From: Candidatus Omnitrophota bacterium
GTDB taxonomy: Bacteria > Omnitrophota > Gorgyraeia > B26-G9
Direction of reading: 5' to 3'
Length of the DNA stretch: 64,000 nucleotides
Assembly: GCA_043805415.1 (NCBI GenBank)
Contig: JAZDHZ010000027.1
Location: forward strand, 71,542 to 135,541
The position numbers were made by a program, and so were the translations under genes. Under the pieces are notes generated by a model. The model was not told the DNA's origin. It was given only the letters and a program-made list of their open reading frames with translations, and searched no databases. Below, piece by piece: positions 7,695-24,784 of the stretch (positions are counted from its first letter, which is position 1; every line of letters begins with the position of its first letter).

Positions 7695-9080
7695 TTATTT
7701 GCTTATTTCATCAACTTTTTTCACGCTAATAGCAATAAGATACCCCAAAACAATAACCATGCTCACTAATGCGAAAATAAGCAGTTTTTTAGGTGATATT
7801 ATCGGCTTATGTTTAATATCCGCATTCGCATTAACTTTTTCTTCTCCGATTTTCCAGCGTTCACCGTTAACCAATGGTATTTCCGATAATACTGATGAAA
7901 CATCATAATGAGGCGCTTTAGCTTCCGGCCCTCCATAATAAGCTTTTAAATTTTTCGCGTTATTGGGAAAAAATATCACTTCATGAACAGAGCCTTCGGC
8001 CTGAACCGAGTTGACTTCAATCGGAGCATTATCATAATTAAATATCCGGACGCGGTATTTTTTATACCTATTTTCTTTATCAGGTAAATCAATCCTGAGA
8101 TTTTCCTTATGAAAATCTCCAGCGTTTATATTGAATAATTCACCCGCAACAAGTCTGATCCAGTTTGCCTCAGGATTTAAAGGATTATCCGCCTCCACAA
8201 AAACTTTACGTTTAAAGTTTCTGTCTGTGATGCTAAATAATATCCGGGTTAAAGGCTCTCTTTGCGAATTCAAATAGATATCGCTGGTTTTATCTTTTTC
8301 ATTAATTGTCACTTTTGCTATATCCAGGGGATAAGGAACCGTCTTAATTTCCCCATAAACCATCTTTTCTTCCCGGCTAATAAAATCAAGCTTGTCGATA
8401 TGCAGCACACCCTCATAACGCATAAAAGCAGCATACTCTTCTTTAACTTTTCCTTTTGCGTATTTAGTAAATATTTGCGAAAATGAGGAAACAAGCGCTT
8501 GCGCCACATTATCAATGACAATCTTATAATATTTAAACGGTTTTTTCTCAAAAGATACGCTGGTATTGCTAAGATCGATAAATCGCGAATAATCAAAAAT
8601 CGGCTGATTCTCACAAAGAATCTGCCATTGCGTTTTATCGTCACTGCCAAACACTGACACTGTTTTTTCAAAATTACTATTTGAAGTTTTAATGATTACA
8701 TCTGAAGGAATAATCAATTCTTTTTGCTTTTGTTTTTCATCATCTATTTCCAAGACAATACTCAGTCTATTGTTCGCAAGCTCTTCAAGGCTTAAGATTT
8801 TCATAGCAACCGGAGATTCGGTTAGAATCTTTTCCTGTCCTCTTAATTTCCGGACCAGATAAGGCACTTCCTTATCTTTCGCGTCATAAATCCTCAAATT
8901 GGCAAAATCATTATCAGTATTAAGATATAGCTGACTATCAAAAGTCGCTGCGCCCACTTCCTGTTCCATATTTTCAGGCGCTGTTAATTCCTTGTAGAAT
9001 AAGAATTCATTTGCCGATACTGGTGCTGCTAAACAAACTGCCAGAACTAAAATACTGAATATCCTAATCGAGTTTTTCAT
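7695..9080 (-). CDS. Secreted/anchored DUF3999-like protein (signal peptide, C-terminal TM helix)
   Basis: 461 aa. N-terminal signal peptide (MKNSIRIFSILVLAVCLAAPVSA) and C-terminal hydrophobic helix (LLIFALVSMVIVLGYLIAISV). Overlaps by 4 nt the downstream end of a large polytopic membrane protein gene. DUF2339/DUF3999 pairs are commonly arranged this way. Confidence 0.35.
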   Translation of the reverse strand: MKNSIRIFSILVLAVCLAAPVSANEFLFYKELTAPENMEQEVGAATFDSQLYLNTDNDFANLRIYDAKDKEVPYLVRKLRGQEKILTESPVAMKILSLEELANNRLSIVLEIDDEKQKQKELIIPSDVIIKTSNSNFEKTVSVFGSDDKTQWQILCENQPIFDYSRFIDLSNTSVSFEKKPFKYYKIVIDNVAQALVSSFSQIFTKYAKGKVKEEYAAFMRYEGVLHIDKLDFISREEKMVYGEIKTVPYPLDIAKVTINEKDKTSDIYLNSQREPLTRILFSITDRNFKRKVFVEADNPLNPEANWIRLVAGELFNINAGDFHKENLRIDLPDKENRYKKYRVRIFNYDNAPIEVNSVQAEGSVHEVIFFPNNAKNLKAYYGGPEAKAPHYDVSSVLSEIPLVNGERWKIGEEKVNANADIKHKPIISPKKLLIFALVSMVIVLGYLIAISVKKVDEISK

Positions 9081-11500
9081 TTTTCCTCCTCAATAGCGAA
9101 TTTCTTGTTCGCGTAAATATAGGCAAAAGATCCTCCGATTAATATTATTCCTAAGAGCATAAACGCGATTACTCTATAAAAAACTTCCATCTCAGCAAGA
9201 TCAAATAAAAATACTTTACCCATAACAACAATAAACAATCCTAGTCCGCTATATCGCCAATTCTTGCTTGACTTGACTATCCCGATTATAAGGTAGGAAA
9301 CTGCGAATAAAGCCCATACTACTGATATCGCGCCCTCTTGGAAAGATTTCACATACCAATAGAAAAAGGTATTAACTTCCAGAGAAGAATAGATAAACAG
9401 CAAGCCGGTACTTATGACTATAAACGCCTTACGGTAATCTACTAAATCCTGTTTCCTAGAAACTAGCTGCGTAATTCCAATTAGATAAAGAAAAATTACG
9501 CCGTAATCAAAAACCCGGATTAATATCGGTACTGAACCTTTCTCGTAAATATACCCATTAATATTGCTCACCCATCCGGAATAATCATAGAAAAATAATT
9601 TCCCGATAATAAACGCGATTAATATTATTGCTGCTGATAAAAAAACCCGCTTATTAGTAGAAAAATAATTATATAAAATATATCCCCCTAAGATACAGGA
9701 TAATAGCGTGAGCACTGGCATTTGTAATGGCAAACAATAGGAAACCATCTGAAAAAACTCTAAATAAAGGATAAAGAACACAAATGCCACTCCCCCCCAA
9801 AACATTACTTCACGCGAAACCGCGGATGATACTAACAATCTGCTATTAATCTTCTCCTCCACTTTAAAATCTTCAATCTGCTTAATTTTACGTTTATGCA
9901 AAAAGAAGCCACTGAAAAAAGAAGCGATAACCACACCAAAAGTCCAGATTCGATCAAAAAATATTGCCCAATACTCACTTAACGGCAGCGTTGCCGCAAA
10001 GCGGCCTAAGAATTTACTCGGCATATCAATAAGTAATAGTCTGCTCACAACCATTAAGTATAAAATATGAGCAAGGTTTATCAGCAGGTTGCTATTTAAT
10101 TTCAAACCTATCCAAAGGAAGAAAAATGCCTGCAATGCCCAGCAGATAGTCAGTGTTTCTTTTTGGGTAATCAACGGTACTGCCCAGACCGTAAAGAAGC
10201 CAGCAACCCCTATCAAACAAACTAACAAATTACGGTCAACATTGCGGTTTTTAAGAAAAACGTAAATATGCGTTATGTAAAAAACAGCTACCCCGATTGC
10301 CATAACTGCTGGCCAAGGACGGCCATAAGCTTCTAAAATTAAAGCGTATGCTGTTAAGGAATAGAAAAAAGAGTTAAAAAGCATATGAATTATTTCTAAG
10401 TTTGAGGATTGTTTACGTTTAACCAGGTTATAATAAAATATGATCATCCCATGCAAAATAAACAATAAACTAAGCAGCGTTATTGTTCCAGGAAAGTCTC
10501 TTTTTACCTGATAGCCGGAAAAACTCGCGAATACTAAAGCCCAGGTGAATATAAACCCTAGGTAATTTAATAAACGCCAATTGCGCACATGGGCTATAAT
10601 TAAAATACCGATACTAAGTATCAGCATATAAGCATATAGACCTACTGGGCTTGCTTCAGGAGTGCTTAATATTATCGGAGTACAGAAGCCGCCAATAATT
10701 CCAAAAATAGCTACTAGTTGCGAATTAAACTTATATGCCATTACTCCCGCGACAATAGTAATTAAAACCATAAAAGCAAATGTACCGGACAAGGGAATCT
10801 TGGCATATAATGGACCAGCGGCGTACATGCTAAAATAAAGAGCCGCCAAACCACCGCCTAAAAAGCCTTGCCCAAGAATATCATATTTTTTATTAAGATT
10901 CTTAACCCCTACCCCTAACATAGAAAGTCCAGCCATTATCGATAAGGCTATGCGCCCGGTATTACCTAAAATTCCTCGATCCATTGACCATTTTAGAAAA
11001 TAGCCAATACAAATAACTATGGCAATAACTCCCAGTCTCATCAGCCAAGTACTGGCAATCGCGTATTCGATTGATACGTTTTTCTGGCGGCGTTCTTCCC
11101 CAACCAGTATCCAATTCCAGATCTTTTTTAAAATATCATTAACGCCCTCTTCAAGCTTTGATTTTTGACGATCAACTTTAACTGTCGGCTTTATATTTAC
11201 AGCAGCAGGTTTTAAAATCGCTGGCTGTTTTTTGGATACTTGCGAAACCTCGCTGACTTTTTTCAAATCCATAACCGGCTCTTTTGGCACCTCTTCAAGG
11301 TTTTTAGCTTCAGCTGGCTTAGGAATATCCTTATCCGACTCTGGCTCAATATGCTTAATCAGCTCTTCCAGCTTTTGGCGTAGCGGCACAAGAGAAAGAT
11401 AAATATCTCTTTGCAAATCAAGTCTTGTCTCTTTTAATAATTTTTCTATGATCTTTAAAAAAATGGAACCAAAAACAATAAGGGCTATAATATAAAACAT
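9077..11500 (-). CDS. Large polytopic membrane protein, DUF2339-like
   Basis: 807 aa. N-terminal ~150 aa are soluble and charged, followed by more than 20 predicted TM helices. The size and architecture match the DUF2339 family. Confidence 0.45.
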   Translation of the reverse strand: MFYIIALIVFGSIFLKIIEKLLKETRLDLQRDIYLSLVPLRQKLEELIKHIEPESDKDIPKPAEAKNLEEVPKEPVMDLKKVSEVSQVSKKQPAILKPAAVNIKPTVKVDRQKSKLEEGVNDILKKIWNWILVGEERRQKNVSIEYAIASTWLMRLGVIAIVICIGYFLKWSMDRGILGNTGRIALSIMAGLSMLGVGVKNLNKKYDILGQGFLGGGLAALYFSMYAAGPLYAKIPLSGTFAFMVLITIVAGVMAYKFNSQLVAIFGIIGGFCTPIILSTPEASPVGLYAYMLILSIGILIIAHVRNWRLLNYLGFIFTWALVFASFSGYQVKRDFPGTITLLSLLFILHGMIIFYYNLVKRKQSSNLEIIHMLFNSFFYSLTAYALILEAYGRPWPAVMAIGVAVFYITHIYVFLKNRNVDRNLLVCLIGVAGFFTVWAVPLITQKETLTICWALQAFFFLWIGLKLNSNLLINLAHILYLMVVSRLLLIDMPSKFLGRFAATLPLSEYWAIFFDRIWTFGVVIASFFSGFFLHKRKIKQIEDFKVEEKINSRLLVSSAVSREVMFWGGVAFVFFILYLEFFQMVSYCLPLQMPVLTLLSCILGGYILYNYFSTNKRVFLSAAIILIAFIIGKLFFYDYSGWVSNINGYIYEKGSVPILIRVFDYGVIFLYLIGITQLVSRKQDLVDYRKAFIVISTGLLFIYSSLEVNTFFYWYVKSFQEGAISVVWALFAVSYLIIGIVKSSKNWRYSGLGLFIVVMGKVFLFDLAEMEVFYRVIAFMLLGIILIGGSFAYIYANKKFAIEEEK

Positions 11501-11601
11501 AATCTCTCCTTCTTTACGCGACTTTGGTTTAACATTTAAACTTTTTAACCAAGGGTATTCTTAAACCAGTTTACACATTCTTTTATAAACTCATCTGGAT
11601 T

Positions 11602-11778
11602 TCAGTCGAAAATCTTCTCCGCGTGCCCGGCCTGCTCTACAATTAACAGCTTTTTCGGGTCACGCGCTTTTGCAAATAATTTTTTACTGTGCTCAGGCTT
11701 AATTATCCAGTCTTTTTCTCCATTTATAAAATAAATCGGCGCAAGAGCAATATCACTTACCACATCAAAAGGAGATCA
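11602..11778 (-). pseudogene. C-terminal remnant of an alpha/beta-fold hydrolase
   Basis: The minus-strand frame translates to ...DVVSDIALAPIYFINGEKDWIIKPEHSKKLFAKARDPKKLLIVEQAGHAEKIFD*. This includes the catalytic His context (GHAE) of alpha/beta hydrolases. The frame is closed by a stop immediately upstream and has no start codon. Confidence 0.4.
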
Positions 11779-11831
11779 TTATTTTAATAGCATTATTATT
11801 AAACGCCCCCTACAACGCCTTAAACGAAAAG

Positions 11832-12323
11832 TTAAGCTTTCGGTTTTTCATCTCCAGCTCCTTTAATCGCTTTAAAACTTTTTCGTATTTTTACCAGTAA
11901 TTGGTTTAAACTGCGGCTTTCATCATCAGAAACGCACATCATATTTTTTTCAATTACTTTCAAATATTCCGGCTCTACTTCTTCTAATTTTCTCATCCCC
12001 TGCGCAGTTAATTGTACATGATAAACCCTTCTGTCTCCCTCAACTGGCAACCTGCGCACATAACCTTTTTTTTCTAGTTTGTCTATCAACCCGGTAACAT
12101 TGCCCCGGCTAGAAACCATCCGCTCGCTAATTTCTACTTGAGTAAGTTTTCGCTTCTCCAGTTTAATAATAATCATAACATTATATTGAGCATCAGTAAT
12201 ATCAAATTTTCTAAAGAAATCTCTAGAAATCTTATCCAAACAATTAGCAGTATATACGATACTTAATACCGCTTCATGCCGCAATGAATCAATTTTTTGC
12301 TTTATTTCTTTATCCAGAGACAT
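11832..12323 (-). CDS. MarR-family transcriptional regulator
   Basis: 163 aa with a winged-HTH segment (LTQVEISERMVSSRGNVTGLIDKLEKKGYVRRLPVEGDRRV) typical of MarR. Confidence 0.75.
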   Translation of the reverse strand: MSLDKEIKQKIDSLRHEAVLSIVYTANCLDKISRDFFRKFDITDAQYNVMIIIKLEKRKLTQVEISERMVSSRGNVTGLIDKLEKKGYVRRLPVEGDRRVYHVQLTAQGMRKLEEVEPEYLKVIEKNMMCVSDDESRSLNQLLVKIRKSFKAIKGAGDEKPKA

Positions 12324-12574
12324 TTTACACCCAACTTTGTTTATAACTATACTGTTAATCTATAAACAGTATATCACAAAACAATATTCCTGTCAATGCC
12401 TCAGCTAATTCGCAAGTATTATTATTGGAATCACCGGCAGTAAATATACGTCATAAACCTTTAATCTGTTTACATATAAAAAAAGCCTGATAAGTGATGA
12501 GCTAAATGGCCCGGAGTAAACAGCTTGGTTCTTTAATATTGCTGGTTAAAGTTATCTTTGCTATAATGTTTTTC

Positions 12575-14236
12575 ATGATATCACAACTCACCATACAAAA
12601 TATTGGACTGATAGATAAACTCACTATCGATTTTCGCCGGCACTTAAATATTCTGACCGGCGAAACTGGGGCGGGAAAATCGATTTTAATTGATGCTCTT
12701 CGCTTTGTTTTAGGAGAACGGGTAAATACCTCTTTGGTGCGCAATCCGGAACTGTCTTGCACTGTAGAGGCTATTTTTGAGATACAAAAAAAATCTCTGA
12801 GTGAATATGATGCTTTTTTAGAATTTTTTAACCAAGAAAATCAGCTGATCATAAACCGCTCTTATCTTCCGGACGGCAGAAGCAAAATTAAAATAAATGG
12901 GTTTACCGTCACTTTAACCCAGCTAAAAAACCTGGGTGATAGTCTGGTGGATTTTCACGGCCCGCATGACCATCAGCTGCTTTTTTCCGTACAATCGCAT
13001 ATAAAAATGCTGGACCGTTTAAGCAACATCGATGCCTTGAAACAATCTTATCTGGAAAACTATCATAAATACAGCGAACTCCTAAAAAAACAAAGCGAAT
13101 TAAAAGAAATGGCAGTTTCGCGGGAAAAGGAGCTCGACACCCTTAAATATCAAATAAATGAGCTGAGTAGTGTTCCTCTTGATCAAGTAAAATATGAAGA
13201 ACTTTTAACCGAACAAAAAAAACTTAATAATCGCGAAAGAATATCTGAAAACTTAAATACTGTTATAGCCATGCTGGAAAATGACGAGACTGGTGTCAAT
13301 GAAACCATCCGCAAAGCATTTGGAGCGATGAAGAATCTCAATAACATTGATGAAAGTACCAAAAATTTTATGGAACAATTAAACACCCTGCAGGAAACCG
13401 GTGATGAGCTTTTAAACAATCTAATTGCTTACCGCGACAGCCTTTGTTTTGATACTGAAACCACTCAGAACATTAATTCCCGCTGCGATATTTATTACTC
13501 CATAAAACGCAAATACGGGCCGACTTTAGAATCTGCCCTCAAATTCTTCGAAGAGGCAAAAGAAAAATACGAACTTATATCGAATTTAGAACACAACACA
13601 GCGAGCCTGAACAAAGAAATCACTTCTCTCCAGGAAGAACTTGAAAAAGCCGCAGATAAAATATCTAAACAGCGTAAAAAAACAGCTTCTGCTCTTCAAA
13701 AAACCATAGAAAAAGAACTCAAAGACCTTGGTATAAAACAAGTAGAATTCGAATGCCGCGTTAAAAAAACTGCTTTAAACCAGGATGGCTGCGATTCTGT
13801 GGAATTTTATATAAGCCCCAATGCCGGCGAAAGCCTTAAACCTCTGGCTGAGATAGTTTCTTCCGGAGAAGCCGCGCGGGTAATGCTGGCGCTAAAAAAA
13901 GCCCTGATCGAAGTTGACCTTATACCCGTACTTATATTCGATGAAATCGACGCCCAAATCGGCGGCCGGCTCGGCACCATAACCGGGCGTAAATTAAAAG
14001 AACTTTCTTGCGGCCGACAGGTTATCCTAATCACCCATTTGCCGCAAATCGCCAGTTTCGCCGACGCTCACTATAAAGTAGTAAAAACGGTTAAAGCCAA
14101 CCGCACTTTTACAACCATAGAGTATCTGGAAAATGAAACACGGGTCAAAGAACTTGCCGCAATGATGAGCGACGAAAAACAAAGCCCCATCGCCATAAAC
14201 CACGCCAGAGAAATGCTTGCTAAGGCAGGCGAATAA
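12575..14236 (+). CDS. recN: DNA repair protein RecN
   Basis: N-terminus MISQLTIQNIGLIDKLTIDF...LTGETGAGKSILIDAL (Walker A), long coiled-coil middle, C-terminal signature and Walker B (LIFDEIDAQIGG). Start chosen at the ATG 12575 that aligns with RecN N-termini. The tool ORF from 12506 adds an unlikely 23-aa hydrophobic extension. A TATAAT sits at 12562-12567. Confidence 0.85.
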   Translation: MISQLTIQNIGLIDKLTIDFRRHLNILTGETGAGKSILIDALRFVLGERVNTSLVRNPELSCTVEAIFEIQKKSLSEYDAFLEFFNQENQLIINRSYLPDGRSKIKINGFTVTLTQLKNLGDSLVDFHGPHDHQLLFSVQSHIKMLDRLSNIDALKQSYLENYHKYSELLKKQSELKEMAVSREKELDTLKYQINELSSVPLDQVKYEELLTEQKKLNNRERISENLNTVIAMLENDETGVNETIRKAFGAMKNLNNIDESTKNFMEQLNTLQETGDELLNNLIAYRDSLCFDTETTQNINSRCDIYYSIKRKYGPTLESALKFFEEAKEKYELISNLEHNTASLNKEITSLQEELEKAADKISKQRKKTASALQKTIEKELKDLGIKQVEFECRVKKTALNQDGCDSVEFYISPNAGESLKPLAEIVSSGEAARVMLALKKALIEVDLIPVLIFDEIDAQIGGRLGTITGRKLKELSCGRQVILITHLPQIASFADAHYKVVKTVKANRTFTTIEYLENETRVKELAAMMSDEKQSPIAINHAREMLAKAGE

Positions 14237-14570
14237 GGTTAAGAAATAACTTAATAAATGACTCTGCCCCCGGGCGCAGGCTACTTTCCCAGAGCTTGAT
14301 TTTCTGTTTGGCATGATAAATACAGGTTGATGCAAAAATTGCCTGCCCAGATAAAAACAGATCATTTGAATGGAACTCAGCAAATATGCGTCCTAACTCT
14401 TTGCTGTGTTTGCAGATACAAAAACCGCTTACGCTCATTATTAGGCCTCCCCTGCCTATGCAGAGAAATTCATCTCCCCATGCGCCAATATACCCACTTA
14501 GGAATATTGGCATTAAATTATAATTTATGATACAATTTATGACTTTAATGTATTATAAGAAAGCCACGCA

Positions 14571-17231
14571 ATGTTAAAAATACTTAAAAAATCCTTAGTT
14601 ATAATAAGATTGCTTGTATTTTTTTTACTAACAAGCATTACTTACTTACATGCTGATAGTAGCGTATCGCAGCACAGTACGACAACTATGAGTTTTTTAA
14701 TTACTGAACAGGCCATGCTTGCGCCTCGCATCACCAGCAATAGTCTTAAAATTTCTGATTATATTCAAGCCTTTACTATTTGCAGAACCATTGAGGGACG
14801 ATCTCCTCATAAGCTTTCCCTTAACGAAATAATGTCCTCATTGGACACAACCGATCCTTTATTTAAGGAGTGCCGGTTTGAAACCAAGTTAAAAGAACTG
14901 TACATTTATCTTCCTAACAGCGCTCTTTGCATTCGCTACTTTAACCCGTATCCAGAAATAATGCGCGATTTACCTGATAATGGGATTATGCTTAATGCTC
15001 AATTGTACCGCCAAATCAGTGTGCTTACAAAAAAGTTATACCCTGACGTCCAACAAATAAACCCGGCAATTCACCCCAGCGTCAAAGCTGTTGTATTTGA
15101 TTTTGACGGCACCATCGCCGACACCATTCCGCATATTCTTCGAGCCTTTGGAAAAATTATTTACGCCATTACACAAGCAACTTCCGATATTCCTCCTGAA
15201 GATTATTCGCCATTAGCTGCTAAGTTTTTAGATGAGCGCCAATGGCAACCAGTAACCACACATATCAACAATCTGATACAAGAAGCAATCCAAGGAGGCG
15301 TTTCCCAGCATCAGCTTACTGAAATCATGACTCAATTGGCACATAAGTATAATATTATCGGCCTGCGTCAAGAAGCGATGGACATGGGATTCGCTCAGAT
15401 ATATGAAGCTGCTTTGCTGAATGAAATCAAAACCAATCCGCCCCAACCGTTTCCCGGCGCCAGGCAATTTCTCTATTCTTTATACCAGTCCGGTATACGC
15501 ATGTACATTGCAACAGGAACCACCCAAACCGTTGTTGAATATCTTACCCAACAATGGGGCATTGACAGCGGATTTGATGTTATTTACGGCGTGCCTACGG
15601 ACAGACCGTATGGATTTAGCCGGAACAAAACCGATATTCTCGAAGAAGTTAAAAATAATTTAGGACTGTCTGCCGGTGAAATCGCAATTGTCGGTGATTC
15701 TCGGGATGATATGCGTGCCGCAAAGAATCCTTCCCTGCCGGCAAATGAGCGTTTTGTCGCAATTGGTATTTCCAATGAGCAATCCGGACGTGATTTATTA
15801 GCAAACAACGGTGCAGATTTCCTCATCCCGGGGTTATCTGCCTGGCAATCACTTTGGAATACTCTTAGCATCTCTCTACCGACGCTAACGCTGGCAATGC
15901 CGAAAAATAGAGCAGATGGCCTACCCTTTCAATTTGCTATCGGTCATGCGGTTAAGGGAGGCACAAATTTAAAACAGCTTAAAAGTACCGCGCAGGAATT
16001 TGCCACATTTAAGAGCAGTATCATTGAACAAGTACAGGCTCTCCCTGATTCACCATCAGCTTTAGACCTCAATGCTGTTGATTTCAATCAGCCTTTTTTA
16101 AAACTATTTCCCATCATTCGATACGCCCTTGAAACAGATAGTCATTCAGATTTTATGCGCATTATAAACAGTATTATTGAATCACAAACGCTTTCCCCTG
16201 AACAGAAAAAAGAATCGTTTCTTACAATAATGGCCTGGAGTAAACATTTTCCCGCTTCAATAAAACGTGAAAATTATTGCGCTTACTCCTTTGAAATGTT
16301 TGCGCAGGCAGTACAAGAATATCAACAACAGCATCCGCAACAGCTTATTAATGTTGGCGAGCTGGGAAGCGGAGACGGACTGGCTATCTTTCAGTATAAA
16401 AATCTCTTGCGCATGCAGGGAATTAAAGCTGATTACACCCAATTTGAAATTGACCAAGCAAGTATTGATAAATCCCGGCTGTTCAATCAAAAAGACACCT
16501 TTGTGGCCGGGGATCTGGCAAATCTGCCCGAATCAGAAAAGGCAAAATATCGCGCTAAATTTGATGTGATCATGCTTAATAATGTAATGCATGAACTCTT
16601 TGCTGTTTATGGCGAACAAGGGATTAAAACTATTTTAAGCTCTGCTGCTGAATTATTAAAACCCGGCGGAGTTCTGGTTTTCCGAGATGGTATTTATCCG
16701 CAAAACGGAGGCCGCTATACTCGAATAGCAATCTCGCCCCAATACGAAGAAGCCTTTCTTTTCTTTCAGACACATTATAAATTTCGAACAGCGTTATTCC
16801 CCGGGATTTATGACAATGAAGTAGTTCTTCCCCTCGGAGATTTAGCGAAATTCTTAACAAAGATAAAATTCATAGAAGCCAATAAATTATGGGAGGACCG
16901 CTACGGAATAGAAGGCGAAATGCATCAAGTATACTGCTTTGCGAATATAGACGACTATAATCATTTCCTTACAGACGCAGGTTTTCATATTTCAGAAGTC
17001 ACCTTGGGTAATGAGCAGGAATCTTTGGCTTTATGGAAAAAAGCTGTTCCATTTAGCCAACCATTTTTTATGGAGCAAAGAGATGAAGGTGGTCCACATT
17101 CACCAATCAGTGAACAACGCCGCGCAGACGAAGACTCGCTCGCGCGTTTTTCCCTTAGTGATGTATTACAGCATGGTAAAAAGGAACCTGAGGAAAACTC
17201 TGCCACAACCTTGATCCAACAATCAATTTAA
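14571..17231 (+). CDS. Secreted multidomain protein: signal peptide + N-terminal domain + HAD-superfamily hydrolase domain + class I SAM-dependent methyltransferase domain
   Basis: 886 aa. Signal-peptide-like N-terminus (MLKILKKSLVIIRLLVFFLLTSITYLHA). HAD motif I VVFDFDGTIADT and motif III/IV IAIVGDSRDDMRAAKN. Methyltransferase motif I (INVGELGSGDGLAI), an acidic post-I residue, and motif III (LLKPGGVLVF). Q/E-rich C-terminal tail. A 335-bp upstream intergenic region. Confidence 0.6.
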   Translation: MLKILKKSLVIIRLLVFFLLTSITYLHADSSVSQHSTTTMSFLITEQAMLAPRITSNSLKISDYIQAFTICRTIEGRSPHKLSLNEIMSSLDTTDPLFKECRFETKLKELYIYLPNSALCIRYFNPYPEIMRDLPDNGIMLNAQLYRQISVLTKKLYPDVQQINPAIHPSVKAVVFDFDGTIADTIPHILRAFGKIIYAITQATSDIPPEDYSPLAAKFLDERQWQPVTTHINNLIQEAIQGGVSQHQLTEIMTQLAHKYNIIGLRQEAMDMGFAQIYEAALLNEIKTNPPQPFPGARQFLYSLYQSGIRMYIATGTTQTVVEYLTQQWGIDSGFDVIYGVPTDRPYGFSRNKTDILEEVKNNLGLSAGEIAIVGDSRDDMRAAKNPSLPANERFVAIGISNEQSGRDLLANNGADFLIPGLSAWQSLWNTLSISLPTLTLAMPKNRADGLPFQFAIGHAVKGGTNLKQLKSTAQEFATFKSSIIEQVQALPDSPSALDLNAVDFNQPFLKLFPIIRYALETDSHSDFMRIINSIIESQTLSPEQKKESFLTIMAWSKHFPASIKRENYCAYSFEMFAQAVQEYQQQHPQQLINVGELGSGDGLAIFQYKNLLRMQGIKADYTQFEIDQASIDKSRLFNQKDTFVAGDLANLPESEKAKYRAKFDVIMLNNVMHELFAVYGEQGIKTILSSAAELLKPGGVLVFRDGIYPQNGGRYTRIAISPQYEEAFLFFQTHYKFRTALFPGIYDNEVVLPLGDLAKFLTKIKFIEANKLWEDRYGIEGEMHQVYCFANIDDYNHFLTDAGFHISEVTLGNEQESLALWKKAVPFSQPFFMEQRDEGGPHSPISEQRRADEDSLARFSLSDVLQHGKKEPEENSATTLIQQSI

Positions 17232-17737
17232 GGTAAAAACACTCGCTTATATAAACAAGCTATTAAAGACAATAACTGTTCTACTGACAACAAGGTATAG
17301 ATAAAAATAGACTCTTCTAGTTTCTCCTTTCCCAGATAAAAGCAGATTATAAGGAACTCAATTAGTTTCTAGGGCAGACCCCCAATTTCTCCTCTCAGCA
17401 ATCAGCTGTCAACAGTCAGATCGGGGATTAGGATTCTGCTGTTTTGCGCGTTACAATCAAAAATTCGGCAATTCCTTGCATTTTTTATTCGCAACATATT
17501 TATTAATAATGCATTACAAAGAGTGTCCCTGTTTCTTATTAACAACATACTGAGGATATGGTCCTTATAAATTCCGCAGGACTTGAAATTATTGCTTTTT
17601 TAATGTATACTTTTTTAACTTTGATGGTCGCCGGTACTAAGGCAAAACAACCTCGATATCCGTATGGTTCGTTCTCGTGGTTGGTTGCATGCCGCCCATT
17701 GCGGAAATAAACTATAATAAATATTCGAGATGCTCAC

Positions 17738-18877
17738 ATGAAACGAATCACCAGATATATTTTCCGGTTTTTATTAACAATCCTCTGCATTCTAATTCAA
17801 ACCTGCTGGGCTGAAGCAACAAACGATAGAGCTAACGTTGGCGGAATCTTTGATCACAGTGCATTAAGCCCCCAAATAATGCTTAATCGCGCAGCATTAG
17901 AAGAATATTTTAATTCTGAAACAGAGGAAATAATTTTTGGCGAAGCGCATCGTCGGACTAGAAGTATTATCGACAGCGTGTTAAAACACGGGATTAATTC
18001 GGCAAGTAAATTAGAGGACAACGGAATTACCGTTCATGCTTCTGTCGACAGGTACGATGGCAGTGATGGTTCCGCAAGCATTTCGGCAAATTTATTACAG
18101 ATTGACAGCCGGGTTACTGTTAATCAATTGGTAACCGATGCCCTGTATCATCAGGCCAAAGGCATCGTCCAGGTGATTCTCGAGCGCTCGAGTGACACTG
18201 CGCTTAATATCGTGAACAGCAAAAGAATCTCCGATTTTTATTTGCAATTATTGCTGGAAGAACGCGCGGAACATAGTATCATTGCTCTCATTGATGTTGC
18301 CAAATTAAGCCCTGAAGACACGCAACATATTAAAGAAAATCCATTCCTCGAAACTTCCGGCATGGCACTTGAGATAATGCTCAAGCATACTGTATCAAAA
18401 GACGCTATCTGCGGTTTTCTAGTCCCTGAAGCAATGTTGGAAATTATCAGTGACTTATTACCGTCTGATAAAGACATCATTATCATCCCCGGAAAAAAAC
18501 AAAAAAATTTATCAATTGCCCGTCCCGCCTTAATTCATCACAGATTTAGCATAAATCTCAAACGTAATGTTACTATTCGTGTCCCGGATTATGAAGAAGC
18601 ATTAGAGCGTTTTTTTTCAAAGAACCCGAAAAAATATTGGTTGCTCCACGGGATACGCCTTATTACGCCTTCGGATATTATCGCGGAGTCTCAGCCGGCC
18701 GCCCCTTTATTCTATCCGGGATTCACGCTGCAAGAACAGTTCCCCTCGGCTATCGAAGAAATAGGATTGCTGCAGACGTTCATTCCCAAAACAAAACCTG
18801 AATTGCCGGAACAACCTCACTCGCTGGATCATCTCCTGAGATATTTATTGCGTCCATTACTGGAACAGTCTATTTAA
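17738..18877 (+). CDS. Secreted hypothetical protein (signal peptide, no recognisable domain)
   Basis: 379 aa. N-terminal signal peptide MKRITRYIFRFLLTILCILIQTCWA. A 506-bp upstream intergenic region. No motif I can assign. Confidence 0.5.
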   Translation: MKRITRYIFRFLLTILCILIQTCWAEATNDRANVGGIFDHSALSPQIMLNRAALEEYFNSETEEIIFGEAHRRTRSIIDSVLKHGINSASKLEDNGITVHASVDRYDGSDGSASISANLLQIDSRVTVNQLVTDALYHQAKGIVQVILERSSDTALNIVNSKRISDFYLQLLLEERAEHSIIALIDVAKLSPEDTQHIKENPFLETSGMALEIMLKHTVSKDAICGFLVPEAMLEIISDLLPSDKDIIIIPGKKQKNLSIARPALIHHRFSINLKRNVTIRVPDYEEALERFFSKNPKKYWLLHGIRLITPSDIIAESQPAAPLFYPGFTLQEQFPSAIEEIGLLQTFIPKTKPELPEQPHSLDHLLRYLLRPLLEQSI

Positions 18878-19051
18878 ATCCCCTAAAAAAATTGGGACGG
18901 TTATATTTTTTCTTGAGCCGACACCATTCTTATTCTTTTCATCCATGCTGGGCACTGGGTAAAATAGCGCTTTAGCGTTAGATTTATTTTTGTTAACCTA
19001 AATAAAATTCTTTTCTTTACTCATTTTATCCGGCTGCAAAGGCCACGGAGG

Positions 19052-19203
19052 AAACAGCTCGGTTCTTTAATATTGCCCGTTAAAGTTATCTTTGTTATAA
19101 TGAATCACGAATTAAAGAACTTGCCGAAATGATGGGCGATGAAAAACAAAGCACTATCGCCATAAACCACGCCAGAGAAATGCTCGCTAAAGCCAGCGAA
19201 TAA
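19052..19203 (+). pseudogene. Degenerate recN remnant: recN promoter/start fused directly to the last ~30 codons of recN
   Basis: 19052-19102 matches 12518-12568 (recN -10 region and ATG context) with 4 mismatches in about 51 bp. 19113-19203 matches the recN 3' end 14147-14236 with 8 mismatches in about 90 bp, including the TAA. The ATG is out of frame with the 3' segment. Confidence 0.6.
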
Positions 19204-19233
19204 TCTTGTTTCCAAACCCGCATTGGAATATTA

Positions 19234-20022
19234 TTATTTAAGGATTCTTTTGCGCATCATAGCCATGCTGAAAAAAATACAGCCGATAGTCATAGCGGCA
19301 AGATAAAGCAAGTTAAAATAGTCAAGGCTGCAGGTATCACATAATGCCAGAGTGCGCAGTGACGAGACCAGACAGGTTAACGGCATGACTGCCGCCGTTT
19401 TCTGCGCCCATAACGGCAGCGAAGATATCGGGAAAAATACTCCGCCAAAAAGAAACATCGGAGTAACAAACAAAAATACCGGAAAATTAAACATTTCGAT
19501 ATTTTTCACTAAAGAGGTAAAACACATGCCTAAAGCGGAAAAGGCCATGCCCGCCAGAAAGGTGACTGGTACGCACACAATAGCCGCGCGCCAGGGGATC
19601 AAGCCCCAGATTACCACGATAACCAGCATTATCCCCGCGGCCATCACTGACTTTGTCGCTCCCCAAACTATCTCCCCAAGGATAACGTCCTCAAGCATCA
19701 AAGGCGTAGACAAGATTGCGTCATATGTCTTCTAAAAATACATTCTCACAAAAGAAGCGTATGTCGTCTCAAAAAATCCGTGATTCATGACCGCGGCAGC
19801 CACCAGCCCCGGTGCGATAAACTGCAGATAGGAAACCGCCCCAGCGCGGTAAGTAACTTCCGGGACCAGATTCCCCAGTCCCACCCCAAAAGCCAGCAGA
19901 TAAAGCAGCGGTTCTAAAAGCGGCGGGATAAAATTTACTTTCCAGGTCGCTTTATATACGTCAAAATTCCTCTGCCATATCCTTATCGCCCGCCAGCTTA
20001 TATTATGTAATATTGCCCTCAT
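19234..20022 (-). pseudogene. ABC-2 family transporter permease interrupted by an in-frame TAG
   Basis: Two tool ORFs (19732..20022 and 19234..19713) are in the same frame and are separated only by a TAG (plus strand cta at 19732-19734). The read-through translation ...FVRMYF*KTYDAILSTPLMLEDV... gives a single ~262-aa polytopic ABC-2 permease. Confidence 0.6.
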
Positions 20023-20070
20023 CAGGTCATTCCCTCAGTCCCCGGCCGGTAAGTTTCAAAAAAACATCTT

Positions 20071-20965
20071 CTAAGTTTGCCATGCGCAGCGCGCAGGAAC
20101 TTTCACCGAATTTTTTCGATATTTCAGGCCATAACAAATTTGTTTTATGCCCGTAAATAAAAAAATGGGTAAGGTTTTTTTCGTAATCCAGCCCCTTAGC
20201 CTTTCAATATTATTATCCACAGAACCTATTTCTATCACCAAAGAACCCATATATTTTTCAATTAACGCTTTGGGAGAGCCGCGGTCTATTATCTTCCCCT
20301 GATCCATAATAACCAGCCTGTCACAAAGATGCGATGCTTCATCCATATTGTGAGTAGTTATTAAGATAGTCGTCCCTTCTTTTTTTAATTCGTGAAGCCT
20401 TTCCCATATCTGATGCCTTGACTGCGGATCAAGCCCGGTTGTCGGCTCATCAAGAATAAGCAGCCGCGGCCTATTCACCAAAGAGCGCGCGATCATCAGG
20501 CGGCGTTTCATCCCGCCGGATAGTTCATCAATCCGCGCGTCTTTTTTTATGTAAAAGGCCCATAAACTCAAGCAGCTCCACATTGCGCAGATTAGCCGAT
20601 TCTCCGATTATATCAAAATACCGCGCAAAAAACCGCAGATTATCCAGCACTTTCAAGTCCGGGTCAAGATTATCTTCCTGCGGACAAACCCCAATATTCG
20701 TCTTAATAAAACGAGCAAACCGGTCCGTTCTCTTCCCAAACACTTCCAGCGTTCCGCCGCTGGGCTCAAGAAAACAGGAGATCATTCGTATTAAAGTCGT
20801 CTTCCCCGCTCCGTTAGGGCCTAAAAATCCCAAACATTCCTGAGAATTAACGGAAAAATCTATGCCGTTTACCGCTTTAAAGCCGCTGAAGGCTTTGCTT
20901 AGATCTTGAGCATTAACGATACTATTTTTTTGGGAATTCTCATCAGCCATCATTTTATCATCCAA
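20071..20965 (-). pseudogene. ABC transporter ATP-binding protein disrupted by a frameshift at an A7 homopolymer
   Basis: The N-terminal ORF (20528..20965) has Walker A GPNGAGKTT and a Q-loop. The C-terminal ORF (20071..20583, different frame) has the ABC signature LSGGMKRR, Walker [13 protein letters not shown] and the H-loop TTHNMDEA. The frames switch at the run aaaaaaa near 20546-20552. The C-terminal ~40 aa read as nonsense next to further A7/T7 runs. Confidence 0.6.
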
Positions 20966-21000
20966 AAAAAGGTTTACACCTATTTATCTTGGTTTTTAAT

Positions 21001-21440
21001 TTATTTTATTAACATATTCATTATTATTTGAATATTTGTTTCATCCGCGATATTTTTAACTGAAATAAGATTGCTTAAAAGACTAATTGTTTTTTGCAAT
21101 TCCAGGTATTTATAATCTGATGCCTTTAAGCGCTTTTCATTAATCGTATACCCATCAACTAAGTGCTTTTTTAATACATTGGTCGCCCAGATACAAAATT
21201 GAGTAGCCTGTGTGGAATTCACACGGTAACCAACAGAAATAATAGCATCCAAATTGTAAAATTTAGTCTTATAAATTTTGCCATCACCGGCAGTATGTTC
21301 CAAACAATTTTGCAATATGAGCCTGCGTCAGCCAAACTGTCTCTTTCTCCAGCCGGACTTCGACTTTATTTTTATAAACCACAACCTGCCCTTTAGATAT
21401 TTCTTGTGATTTCACAACTTAAACTCCTTAGATAAAATTA
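21001..21440 (-). pseudogene. Truncated and frameshifted RhuM-family protein gene
   Basis: ORF 21001..21315 carries the RhuM core (YNLDAIISVGYRVNSTQATQFCIWATNVLKKHLVDGYTINEKRL). The RhuM N-terminus (VVYKNKVEVRLEKETVWLTQAHIAKLF) is encoded in another frame at about 21330-21440. The C-terminal half of the family is missing. Confidence 0.5.
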
Positions 21441-21503
21441 TATCTATTTTAAACAGTGTTTCGGCCGCATTATTCCTCCTTTGTTTTTCTTCTCTCCGCA
21501 TAA

Positions 21504-21791
21504 TCAGCATACAGTATATGTATGTAATTTAAGAGCCGCTGCTGCTTCATCAACAGTAGCGTAGTAATTTTTGCGGCTTTCACAATGCTGCGGTTTAATA
21601 TGATTCTTTCCGGTATTAACATTCATTTGAGCAGGTGGTTCAATCCGAATATCCATATCTTCAGAAAAACGATGAATTATTCCATACCCTTTAGAAAGCG
21701 ATGTGCCGCCTTTTAACTCAAATTGAAATTCATTTTGCTGCAACCCATATAATACACGCATTATCCAATAATCCTTTTCCACTTCTTCCAC
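21504..21791 (-). pseudogene. N-terminal fragment of an AbiEii/DUF1814-type nucleotidyltransferase (abortive-infection toxin family)
   Basis: 95 aa. Segment ELKGGTSLSKGYGIIHRFSEDMDIRIEP matches the nucleotidyltransferase motif (hGGTAL...RhSEDlDh) of AbiEii-family proteins, which are usually ~300 aa. It abuts katG and has no AbiEi partner. Confidence 0.45.
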
Positions 21792-23987
<2,196 letters not shown>

Positions 23988-24708: not shown

Positions 24709-24784
24709 TGGCTGCCCCGCATGGACTTGAACCATGAACAAATGATCCAGAATCATCCGTGTTGCCAATTACACCACGGGGCAG
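24709..24784 (-). tRNA. tRNA-Gln (anticodon CTG)
   Basis: Reverse complement reads CTGCCCCGTGGTGTAATTGGCAACACGGATGATTCTGGATCATTTGTTCATGGTTCAAGTCCATGCGGGGCAGCCA. It has a 7-bp acceptor stem, a 5-bp anticodon stem with loop TTCTGGA, a GTTCAAGTC T-arm and an encoded CCA. It lies next to gltX. Confidence 0.75.

Follow-up and report, generated by a model that had tools for sequence, protein, structure and literature searches.

A 64,000-nucleotide stretch of a Candidatus Omnitrophota contig (the window) carries an intact copy of the housekeeping repair gene recN, followed by two genes for predicted secreted proteins and then by a second, truncated piece of recN (Table 1). How did this piece arise, and how did it come to lie among unrelated genes? 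The original prediction proposed that a 4.8-kb insert is bracketed by recN and by a fusion of the recN promoter to its 3′ end, and accounted for it by Campbell-type integration of a circular element or, alternatively, by a tandem duplication followed by internal deletion. We compared the locus with its counterparts in related Omnitrophota. The sequences are metagenome-assembled contigs without read support, and the comparison is one between species-level lineages of metagenome-assembled genomes (MAGs).

Table 1. Features of the recN locus, in window coordinates.
Feature	Coordinates	Strand	Evidence or remark
Type-A upstream flank of intact recN	12420–12517	+	Homologous to the recN upstream flanks of L006 and L009
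recN promoter core	12518–12568	+	−35 TTGCTG 12539–12544, 17-nt spacer, extended −10 TGCTATAAT
Intact recN	12575–14236	+	553 aa, start ATG 12575; TIGR00634 full length, SMC_N domain
Native 3′ flank of intact recN	14237–14341	+	85% over 117 aligned columns to the post-recN sequence of L001, E 5e-36
A′ relic: second type-A upstream flank of recN, lacking promoter and gene	14347–14426	+	Local alignment and blastn
p886, predicted secreted HAD phosphatase and class I SAM methyltransferase	14571–17231	+	Pfam
p379, predicted secreted protein with DarT-like ADP-ribosyltransferase fold	17738–18877	+	
Type-B upstream flank of remnant	18964–19037	+	Matches flanks directly upstream of the intact recN promoter in L003 and L008
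Second recN promoter copy, intact	19038–19102	+	−35 TTGCCC 19073–19078, −10 TATAAT 19096–19101
AATG deletion joint	19099–19102	+	4-nt microhomology; 1,567 bp of recN missing
recN 3′-end remnant	19099–19203	+	Codons 520–553 and stop, in frame
22-nt motif, unexplained	19209–19230		21/22 to L009 16704–16725, E 3.7e-5
nodJ-like ABC-2 permease pseudogene	19237–20022	−	One in-frame stop
nodI-like ABC ATPase pseudogene	20030–20953	−	Two frameshifts
RhuM-Fic remnant; conserved backbone resumes here	21001–21415	−	Compared with the 324-aa L006 protein
AbiEii toxin fragment	21504–21791	−	Pfam AbiEii positions 2–54 of 238 only; PADLOC AbiEii E 1e-24

The second recN copy and its flank

The intact RecN matches model positions 1–562 of 563 of TIGR00634 (460 bits, cut-off 407.85), and six other Omnitrophota recN alleles are 86–91% identical to the gene at the nucleotide level. 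The gene shows no mosaic breakpoint, the L006 allele being closest over its whole length. Its extended −10 element, with hexamers assigned by sequence inspection, ends at 12567, 7 nt before the ATG, and a 41-nt promoter core is retained with 0–4 mismatches across all seven lineages.

Blastn of 12400–14400 against the whole window agrees with the repeat search in returning exactly two significant extra matches: 12504–12568 with 19038–19102 (57/65 nt, 87.7%, E 2.5e-16) and 14132–14236 with 19099–19203 (92/105 nt, 87.6%, E 1.6e-30). The repeats on which the original prediction was built are both recovered; that of the promoter holds 47/51 identities (92%) between 12518–12568 and 19052–19102, as claimed, and that of the 3′ end (19113–19203) is present at a counted identity of about 89%, not the 91% first given. 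The 105-nt direct repeats share one orientation, about 4.8–4.9 kb apart, and the genes for p886 and p379 lie between the two copies, as described. At the second site, tblastn with RecN finds C-terminal residues only, and it gives no other match in the window; the body of the gene is therefore absent there, in line with the proposed loss of its middle. The second copy is a recN deletion derivative joining promoter to 3′ end, as had been suggested. The AATG at the joint belongs both to the TATAATG of the −10 box and to the AAT-G of codons 520–521, and its orientation, with the upstream part to its left and the downstream part to its right, reads as a deletion and not as a duplication.

The second copy extends further upstream than first proposed, to about 18964, into a flank of a different type (type B) for which no similarity to the type-A flank of the intact gene was found. 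In flank-only blastn searches, type B matches L003 (27/28 nt, E 1.4e-7) and L008 (49 nt at 78%, E 2e-5), and type A matches L006 and L009 (75–77% over 53–59 nt, E 1.5e-5), all flank homologies being short (28–80 nt). Judged by sequence, the remnant does not stem from local copying: it shares no upstream flank with the intact gene, and its flank is instead of the kind that lies beside intact recN in L003 and L008. Remnant and intact gene are 88% identical, a value inside the range between lineage alleles (85.7–94.2%). The remnant promoter is closest to that of L008 (59/65, against 57/65 for the window's own), with 0 mismatches to L004 and L009 over the 41-nt core. The 3′ piece is 84–90% identical to all alleles and equidistant from them, 105-nt pieces being too short for lineage assignment; six substitutions occur only in the remnant, four of which are non-synonymous.

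A further relic (A′) follows the first module head-to-tail, starting 5 nt past the end of the native 3′ flank of recN. It aligns locally with L006 9833–9912 (z 9.5) and with window 12420–12484 (z 7.5), scores reached in 0/500 dinucleotide shuffles in either case, and its blastn core at 14390–14426 matches L006 9876–9912 (86.5%, E 1e-6). The relic resembles the L006 flank more closely (86%) than it does the type-A flank of the window (about 72%).

Content of the variable segment

In L006 and L009, the two relatives with the closest backbone, recN is followed by RhuM(-Fic), as in the backbone of the window. The interval between recN and RhuM measures 0.56 kb in L006, 5.0 kb in L009, where it carries Lnb_N, DUF3015 and thioredoxin-like genes, and 6.8 kb in the window; the three are unrelated DNA with no shared genes. 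The variable segment of the window runs from 14342 to 21000 (6.7 kb) with the remnant inside it, which contradicts the idea that the remnant brackets a 4.8-kb insert. The expected empty site, with the ABC transporter coming straight after recN, occurs in none of the related lineages with an available downstream flank. Neither p886, p379 nor a second recN fragment was found in any relative examined, nor was a donor arrangement or a true strain-level empty site.

The predicted lack of an integrase or transposase is borne out: Pfam searches of the long ORFs at 2848–29685 and of two small ORFs inside the segment found no integrase, transposase or other mobility gene, and no integrase or recombinase was found in 14237–21000 or its surroundings. 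No tRNA gene is adjacent, the nearest lying at 24709. The decay postulated downstream is equally evident. The nodJ-like pseudogene can be aligned without a change of frame to the full 262 residues of an intact homolog (70% identity), with its ORF split at 19714–19731, and the nodI-like pseudogene is recovered as three tblastn segments (frames −1, −2, −1) with the halves of its ABC_tran domain in separate ORFs. Beyond them, and next to the AbiEii fragment, the RhuM-Fic remnant keeps residues 1–40, 69–162 and the last 14 codons of the L006 protein and has lost the Fic domain. The match of the 22-nt motif in L009 falls exactly where the L009 RhuM is truncated, and the motif was found nowhere else.

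Both cargo proteins had been called orphans, a label that holds for close homologs only, as each has a recognisable enzymatic fold. p886 matches Pfam Hydrolase/HAD_2 at residues 171–386 (E 4e-21) and Methyltransf_12/31/11 at residues 590–805, and its single N-terminal hydrophobic segment, the only TM-like segment, follows three K/R residues; against 5.8 billion clusters it matched only itself. p379 is predicted to adopt an ADP-ribosyltransferase (ART) fold. With E allowed up to 5, neither p379 nor any one of 19 members of its family matched Pfam; nothing relevant turned up in a sequence profile search of the PDB, and Foldseek gave no significant match. At the sequence level p379 does not fall within the DarT toxin family and, unlike DarT, it has an N-terminal signal-like segment and homologs that are domains of giant multi-enzyme proteins. 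A macro domain (the DarG antitoxin) was not found beside it, its neighbours being p886 and the recN remnant. The likeness to DarT is one of predicted fold. A by-product of the analysis is the definition of an uncharacterised family of ART-fold domains that repeatedly occur together with methyltransferase and phosphatase domains. The suggested check of GC and codon usage over 14571–18877 did not set the cargo genes apart as foreign.

Possible origins of the remnants

Across the seven lineages, homology at the recN locus begins 50–140 nt before the ATG and ends 0–105 nt past the stop, and the sequence flanking this block differs in every one. Relatedness of recN is incongruent with that of the flanks: the window is closest to L009 by its flanks and to L006 by recN. 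In four lineage pairs, dS is 0.24–0.56 for recN and 1.07 to saturated for its syntenic neighbours, 3–6 times higher, a contrast that applies to the locus flanks and not to whole genomes, and in which some low-identity 'orthologs' could be paralogs. Since dN/dS is similar for recN and its neighbours (about 0.15), the low dS of recN looks like a matter of time rather than constraint. The contrast is weaker between the window and L009 because the rSAM/B12 neighbour is an exception (dS 0.54, near the 0.44 of recN).

On balance, we consider it probable that the locus is a mobile-element-free hotspot of horizontal transfer in which recN served as the anchor, modules were imported by homologous recombination and extra copies decayed. 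A unit made of a short upstream flank, the promoter and recN would have been exchanged by homologous recombination between lineages of the clade, and at least one extra module from other lineages, probably two, would have been placed head-to-tail by the resident gene. The two secreted-enzyme genes and the nodIJ-type ABC pair would have arrived with these modules as accessory DNA. The redundant recN copies would then have decayed, one being reduced to its upstream flank (14347–14426) and the other, once illegitimate recombination at AATG had removed 1,567 bp (−10 box to codon 519), to flank, promoter and the last 34 codons (18964–19203). The leftovers beside the intact gene would thus stem from at least one, and probably two, other-lineage recN copies. 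We infer the recN-anchored import, a once full-length second recN and this order of events from the arrangement of the remnants; the backbone synteny shared with L006 and L009 makes the intact type-A copy the likelier resident. Several points speak against this reading: no donor arrangement or strain-level empty site was found among the relatives, the intact recN lacks a mosaic breakpoint, the flank homologies are short, the recN flank type does not follow the recN coding tree, the dS contrast is weaker for L009, GC and codon usage do not set the cargo apart, and all contigs are metagenome-assembled.

A bolder version of this exchange, which we hold to be rather improbable, treats recN and its probably leaderless promoter as a self-contained, horizontally circulating cassette. 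It would have been imported again and again across species-level boundaries in this clade and inserted head-to-tail next to the resident copy, possibly through circular intermediates, dragging along accessory genes such as that of a secreted ART-fold enzyme while older copies were whittled away.

Homology-facilitated illegitimate recombination has reportedly been described in transformable bacteria (de Vries & Wackernagel 2002; Prudhomme et al. 2002; cited in PMC5361080), and a one-step displacement by this route is an unlikely alternative. Incoming DNA would have paired with the resident recN at one end, and the donor's other end, at a recN promoter, would have joined at AATG in codon 520 of the resident gene. 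The promoter and type-B flank would then be the donor's, and the 105-nt 3′ piece the displaced end of the former resident. A joint with only 4 nt of microhomology is typical of such joins, in which foreign DNA enters by a conserved anchor, and the promoter piece is closest to L008 whereas the 3′ piece is no nearer to L008 than to other alleles. The pieces are, however, too short to place in different lineages, and classical products replace resident DNA and leave no second promoter-bearing copy of the anchor. The donor, moreover, must already have held a recN promoter downstream of recN and cargo, which only shifts the duplication to the donor, and the separate A′ relic is left without explanation. 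The same order of intact gene, new genes and co-oriented orphan 3′ end recalls the sequential or C-terminal displacement arrays of T6SS effector-immunity, Rhs and CDI loci, for which a homologous anchor combined with an illegitimate join is the proposed mechanism (Kirchberger et al. 2017, PMC5361080, and references therein). Those arrays swap polymorphic toxin tips and immunity genes under diversifying selection, whereas recN is a conserved housekeeping repair gene with homologous 3′ ends (88%) and an orphan piece that also carries promoter and native upstream flank; no immunity-like small ORF is evident after the remnant at this locus.

Campbell-type integration, as originally favoured, would involve a non-replicating circle carrying the promoter–3′-end fusion and the two cargo genes, with a single crossover in roughly 100 bp of 3′ homology. 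We regard it as quite unlikely, even though the 3′-end repeats bracket the cargo in the expected order, no integrase is needed, and the head-to-tail junction between 14341 and 14347 documents circle-like or tandem joining of recN modules at this site. At 88% identity over 105 bp, with a longest perfect run of 29 nt, the repeat is a poor crossover substrate. The fusion retains its native type-B flank and so presupposes a previous deletion within a complete recN locus, an extra step; the model thus asks for all that the favoured reading does and for a less efficient crossover besides. The predicted recipient order was seen in no relative with an available downstream flank. As for a reciprocal mosaic of the two copies, the intact gene shows no breakpoint and the 105-nt pieces are too short to assign, which speaks neither for nor against the model.

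More doubtful still is the idea that the recN region was duplicated in tandem on the spot long ago, one copy then losing its interior and the two diverging independently for a long time. The co-oriented copies, 4.8 kb apart, and an A′ relic that resembles a tandem junction right after the first module would fit it. Yet the two copies differ in upstream flank, that of the remnant matching other lineages, and are not each other's closest relatives, the remnant promoter being closest to L008. A′ is likewise less similar to the flank of the intact gene than to that of L006, and a functionless remnant would have persisted through 12% divergence, itself of between-lineage size, with a promoter core showing 0 mismatches to the clade consensus.

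Least probable is a chimeric contig assembled from co-occurring strains whose graphs were tangled at recN. The window comes from a MAG contig, and contigs of a related metagenome assembly do end within recN, at 119 nt of identical sequence. The fusion joint must nevertheless exist in the reads, since a de Bruijn assembler cannot bridge the 4-nt AATG overlap; the longest identical runs between the copies, 29 and 16 nt, are too short for collapse or misjoining at the usual k, and every junction lies in unique sequence. Integrative elements that enter gene 3′ ends and provide a replacement end (att duplication) similarly leave a direct repeat of the 3′ end bracketing foreign genes, but a site-specific element of this kind was rejected: no integrase or recombinase was found in or around 14237–21000, the repeats are only 88% identical with a 29-nt core common to all alleles rather than an att core, and the distal copy holds promoter and native upstream flank in addition to a displaced 3′ end.

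Comparison with known hotspots

Hotspots free of mobile elements are thought to work by recombination of flanking core genes, usually inferred statistically. In the portion of the study available to us, such hotspots are flanked by recombining core genes, commonly recombination or repair genes (Oliveira et al. 2017, PMC5635113). As far as that portion goes, the locus shares their variable accessory content between conserved flanking genes, the lack of integrase and transposase, and a flanking core gene that belongs to recombination or repair and bears signs of recombining and of phylogenetic incongruence; the signs of recN recombination and incongruence come from the locus flanks. It differs in that recN itself left remnants of displaced or imported copies, which we did not find described in the available part of that study, and in that species-level MAG lineages, not strains of one species, are compared here.

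The locus is probably an ordinary but well-preserved gene-exchange hotspot. Rarely can the feeding and cleaning-up of such a hotspot be followed as directly as here, in a phylum accessible through metagenomes only. The evidence consists of physical remnants: one relic reduced to its flank, and one promoter joined to a 3′ end by a clean deletion across 4 nt. Were recN indeed a circulating cassette, a housekeeping repair gene would be both vehicle and anchor of gene flow, and the locus would preserve three generations of it. Should the low dS of recN hold up in whole genomes, the finding would also caution against treating the gene as a marker of vertical descent in this group.

Anatomy of the recN-derived repeats

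Intact recN is full-length (TIGR00634 score 460 bits, cut-off 408) and its start is the ATG at 12575 rather than the longer-ORF start at 12506, as the former is common to all alleles and follows just downstream of a −10 box. A sliding-window mosaic test detected no breakpoint in the gene. In all alleles (12562-12575 in the window, and L001–L009, the other Omnitrophota recN loci), 7 nt separate the end of the −10 box from the ATG, which makes a leaderless recN mRNA probable. The 41-nt promoter core carries 0-4 mismatches across lineages, as against 6-14% divergence of their coding sequences, and an inverted repeat within it, CTTTAA-N9-TTAAAG, spans the −35 region and is possibly an operator. 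Viral contigs had no match to this conserved promoter pattern, and an Rfam search of 11500-22000 (E up to 1) returned none.

The original prediction held that the promoter and 3' end of recN recur beyond two cargo genes, p886 and p379. Both repeats are present at those positions, far above chance: a repeat search aligned 12504-12568 with 19038-19102 (65 nt, 88% identity; blastn E 2.5e-16) and 14132-14236 with 19099-19203 (105 nt, 88%; blastn E 1.6e-30). When 12400-14400 was searched against the entire 64 kb by sensitive blastn, just these two extra matches emerged, the remaining ones having E values of at least 0.04, and at the second site a RecN tblastn search recovered nothing but C-terminal residues. 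No further recN promoter, 5' or 3' fragments were found elsewhere in the window or in any related locus.

Features of the recN locus (window positions)
Feature	Position	Observation
Palindrome	12349-12374	between marR and recN
Intact recN	12575-14236 (+)	553 aa
Native 3' flank of recN	14237-14341
Variable segment	14342-21000	contains the remnant
A' relic	14347-14426	type-A upstream flank copy
p886	14571-17231	cargo gene
p379	17738-18877	cargo gene
recN remnant	18964-19203	flank, promoter and 3' end
Flank of remnant promoter	18964-19037
AATG overlap in remnant	19099-19102
22-nt motif	19209-19230	5 nt past remnant stop codon
nodIJ ABC pair	19237-20953 (-)	pseudogenes
nodJ-like permease		one in-frame stop
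nodI-like ATPase		two frameshifts
RhuM-Fic and AbiEii fragments	21001-21791	between ABC pseudogenes and katG
RhuM-Fic		Fic domain lost
AbiEii		short fragment

The promoter piece of the remnant ends ...GTTATAATG and its coding piece opens AAT GAA, corresponding to codons 520-521, with the two pieces overlapping by AATG. The joint has upstream sequence on its left side and downstream sequence on its right, which argues for a deletion joint where 1,567 bp would have been removed at a 4-nt microhomology. The remnant promoter (19073-19101) is intact (TTGCCC, 17 nt, TATAAT with TG) and its 41-nt core has 0 mismatches to the L004/L009 promoter, a perfect conservation that may reflect chance (P about 0.07, a rough estimate) or retained constraint. 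The 3' piece comprises the last 34 codons plus the stop, in frame, with 6 substitutions absent from all other alleles (4/6 non-synonymous), as would be expected of the end of a dead gene.

The flank upstream of the remnant promoter shows no similarity to the one upstream of the intact promoter. Queried with the promoter excluded, it matches the sequence immediately preceding intact recN in both L003 (27/28, E 1.4e-7) and L008 (49 nt, E 2e-5), whereas the flank of the intact copy matches L006 and L009 instead; we refer to the latter flank as type A and to the former as type B. Identity of the remnant to each of the alleles is 84-91%, compared with 85.7-94.2% among the alleles themselves. The flank and this divergence indicate that, rather than being copied locally, the remnant derives from a genuine recN locus of another flank type and is as diverged from the resident gene as a different lineage would be.

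L001 shares the native 3' flank of intact recN (E 5e-36), and 5 nt beyond this flank the type-A upstream flank occurs a second time (A' relic), aligning to L006 with z 9.5 and to the window's own flank with z 7.5 (0/500 shuffles reach either). No promoter or gene follows the relic, and a promoter-like stretch upstream of p886 resembles the recN promoter marginally (z 3.8 against L006, 0.4 against the window). At the A' junction, two recN modules are joined head-to-tail. The p886–p379 intergenic region has no significant likeness to the recN promoter or to either flank.

Smaller repeats also occur at the locus. A direct repeat around p886 (14346-14379 and 17331-17360; 27/30 aligned bases plus a 4-nt gap), whose first copy corresponds to the distal portion of the A' relic, is marginal (5/500 shuffles reach it). 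An imperfect 22-nt inverted repeat around p379 (17300-17321 and 18859-18880; 18/22), whose right arm overlaps the stop codon, is probably due to chance. The motif TTTCC[A/G]AACCCGCATTGGAATA just past the remnant recurs at L009 16704-16725, exactly at the RhuM truncation ending a 5-kb variable segment (E 3.7e-5), with no occurrence besides these two sites; it may be left over from an ancestral intergenic region or mark where a transferred segment ends.

Related loci and the divergence of recN

RecN scans yielded nine loci that reduce to six other lineages: L001, L003, L006, L007 (= L002 + L005), L008 and L009 (= L004). All six are homologous to the window at the nucleotide level across recN, together with 50-140 nt before its ATG and 0-105 nt past its stop, and the recN flanks are different in every lineage. 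The window, L006 and L009 have in common a backbone of upstream genes, type-A flank, recN and downstream RhuM(-Fic), in which recN and RhuM are 0.56 kb apart in L006, 5.0 kb in L009 (three unrelated genes) and 6.8 kb in the window. Since the window's RhuM fragment keeps the native last 14 codons, the backbone resumes at 21001, which delimits the variable segment. The hypothesised empty site, in which the ABC transporter comes straight after recN, was seen in no relative with an available downstream flank. recN is absent from 3/3 inspected contexts of nodIJ permease homologs (L010, L011, L013), but the best permease homologs are only 64-69% identical and thus little guide to whether recN is the native neighbour of the nodIJ pair.

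Nei-Gojobori dS estimates, covering recN and its locus flanks, gave for recN 0.29 between the window and L006 (flanking syntenic genes 1.65 and saturated), 0.34 for window–L007 (1.07-1.47), 0.40 for L006–L009 (1.76-2.65), 0.24 for L001–L003 (2.26) and 0.44 for window–L009 (0.54, 1.13, 1.20 and 1.46). As dN/dS is similar for recN (about 0.15) and its neighbours (0.1-0.2), recN looks younger, not differently constrained. The window flanks are nearest to L009 (75-86% at the amino-acid level) and far from L006 (51-60%), whereas the window's recN is nearest to that of L006. Judged from these locus flanks only, recN looks to have been exchanged between lineages.

A DUF3999–DUF2339–MarR block precedes recN in the window (7695-12323) but is downstream of it in L007 (13002-20819), a locus with an additional inserted gene of 1,138 aa; this displacement is another rearrangement pivoting on recN. 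The perfect palindrome TATACTGTT-N8-AACAGTATA, which overlaps divergent promoter-like sites, is retained alongside marR in L007, at a site where marR and recN are not adjacent, and so is likely to be the MarR operator and not to regulate recN. In the MM_PC_MetaG assembly, the L002, L003 and L005 contigs end or start at one 119-nt identical stretch within recN, which is a strain-level tangle in the assembly graph; we rejected the identical tail of L003 and L007 as a recombination tract, the assembler having broken contigs there. The MAG JAHITY01 includes both the type-B recN contig L003 and the type-A recN contig L004, reflecting either bin contamination or a genome truly with two recN loci.

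Cargo genes and decayed neighbours

Both cargo proteins had only self matches, in a Candidatus Omnitrophota NCBI MAG on a contig of 137.6 kb, and exact-sequence look-ups of p379, p886 and the protein P0001 retrieved no contig on record. The cargo does not stand out as foreign in GC, GC3 or codon usage; the most deviant gene is recN, probably because recN, p886 and p379 lie on the strand opposite to everything else. All ORFs of at least 250 aa in the window (1-64000) are on the minus strand except these three, which run against the prevailing orientation, and GC skew is negative throughout.

For p379, which has a DarT-like ART fold and is predicted to be secreted, a single-sequence AF2 model was unusable (pLDDT 39), Foldseek against the PDB returned nothing significant, a PDB sequence profile search was negative and PADLOC gave no defence-system match; p886 had a weak methyltransferase-type PADLOC match only. 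Conserved residues of p379 include E149/R150, H304 and R307. The p379-type domain recurs with methyltransferase and phosphatase/phosphoesterase domains in giant homologs (P0004, P0005, P0016, P0021), and the adjacent p886 is predicted to combine the same activities (HAD and SAM methyltransferase), a parallel that suggests a functional link between the two proteins.

The decay proposed around the remnant is borne out by the nodIJ pseudogenes and the RhuM-Fic (PADLOC PDC-S05/S23) and AbiEii fragments. These defence-associated fragments indicate that defence genes were formerly present in the hotspot.

A proposed recN-anchored hotspot lacking an integrase

We favour, with modest confidence, an integrase-free hotspot anchored on recN, with modules imported by homologous recombination and redundant copies eroded. 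Modules of flank, promoter and recN from related lineages would enter by homologous recombination, with accessory DNA, resulting in transient multi-copy, head-to-tail recN states; the redundant copies would then erode, one to a bare flank and one through the AATG deletion. That recN is itself a circulating cassette carrying cargo is a tentative and rather unlikely proposition.

One-step displacement, with the AATG joint as the illegitimate end of the insertion and the 3' piece as the former resident's tail, has a small chance of being correct. The observation behind the original prediction is confirmed and its interpretation supported in part only: a circle already carrying the promoter–3'-end fusion and crossing over in the 105-bp homology is improbable, as it needs an extra step and the homology is a poor crossover substrate (88% identity, longest perfect run 29 nt). 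Its alternative of tandem duplication followed by internal deletion is contradicted by the unrelated upstream flanks of the two copies, and we give an ancient local duplication of the recN region a slighter chance still. Least probable is an assembly chimera, because a 4-nt joint and identical runs of 16-29 nt should not mislead an assembler.

The hotspot anchored on recN fits the framework of mobile-element-free hotspots with recombining flanking core genes (PMC5635113). Its layout also resembles the sequential-displacement arrays of Kirchberger et al., in which displacement leaves shifted 3' ends and orphan genes, the proposed mechanism being homology-facilitated illegitimate recombination (PMC5361080). 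What sets the recN locus apart is its repeated unit, a housekeeping gene for DNA repair that brings its own promoter, and the locus represents a recombination hotspot with unusually legible scars.
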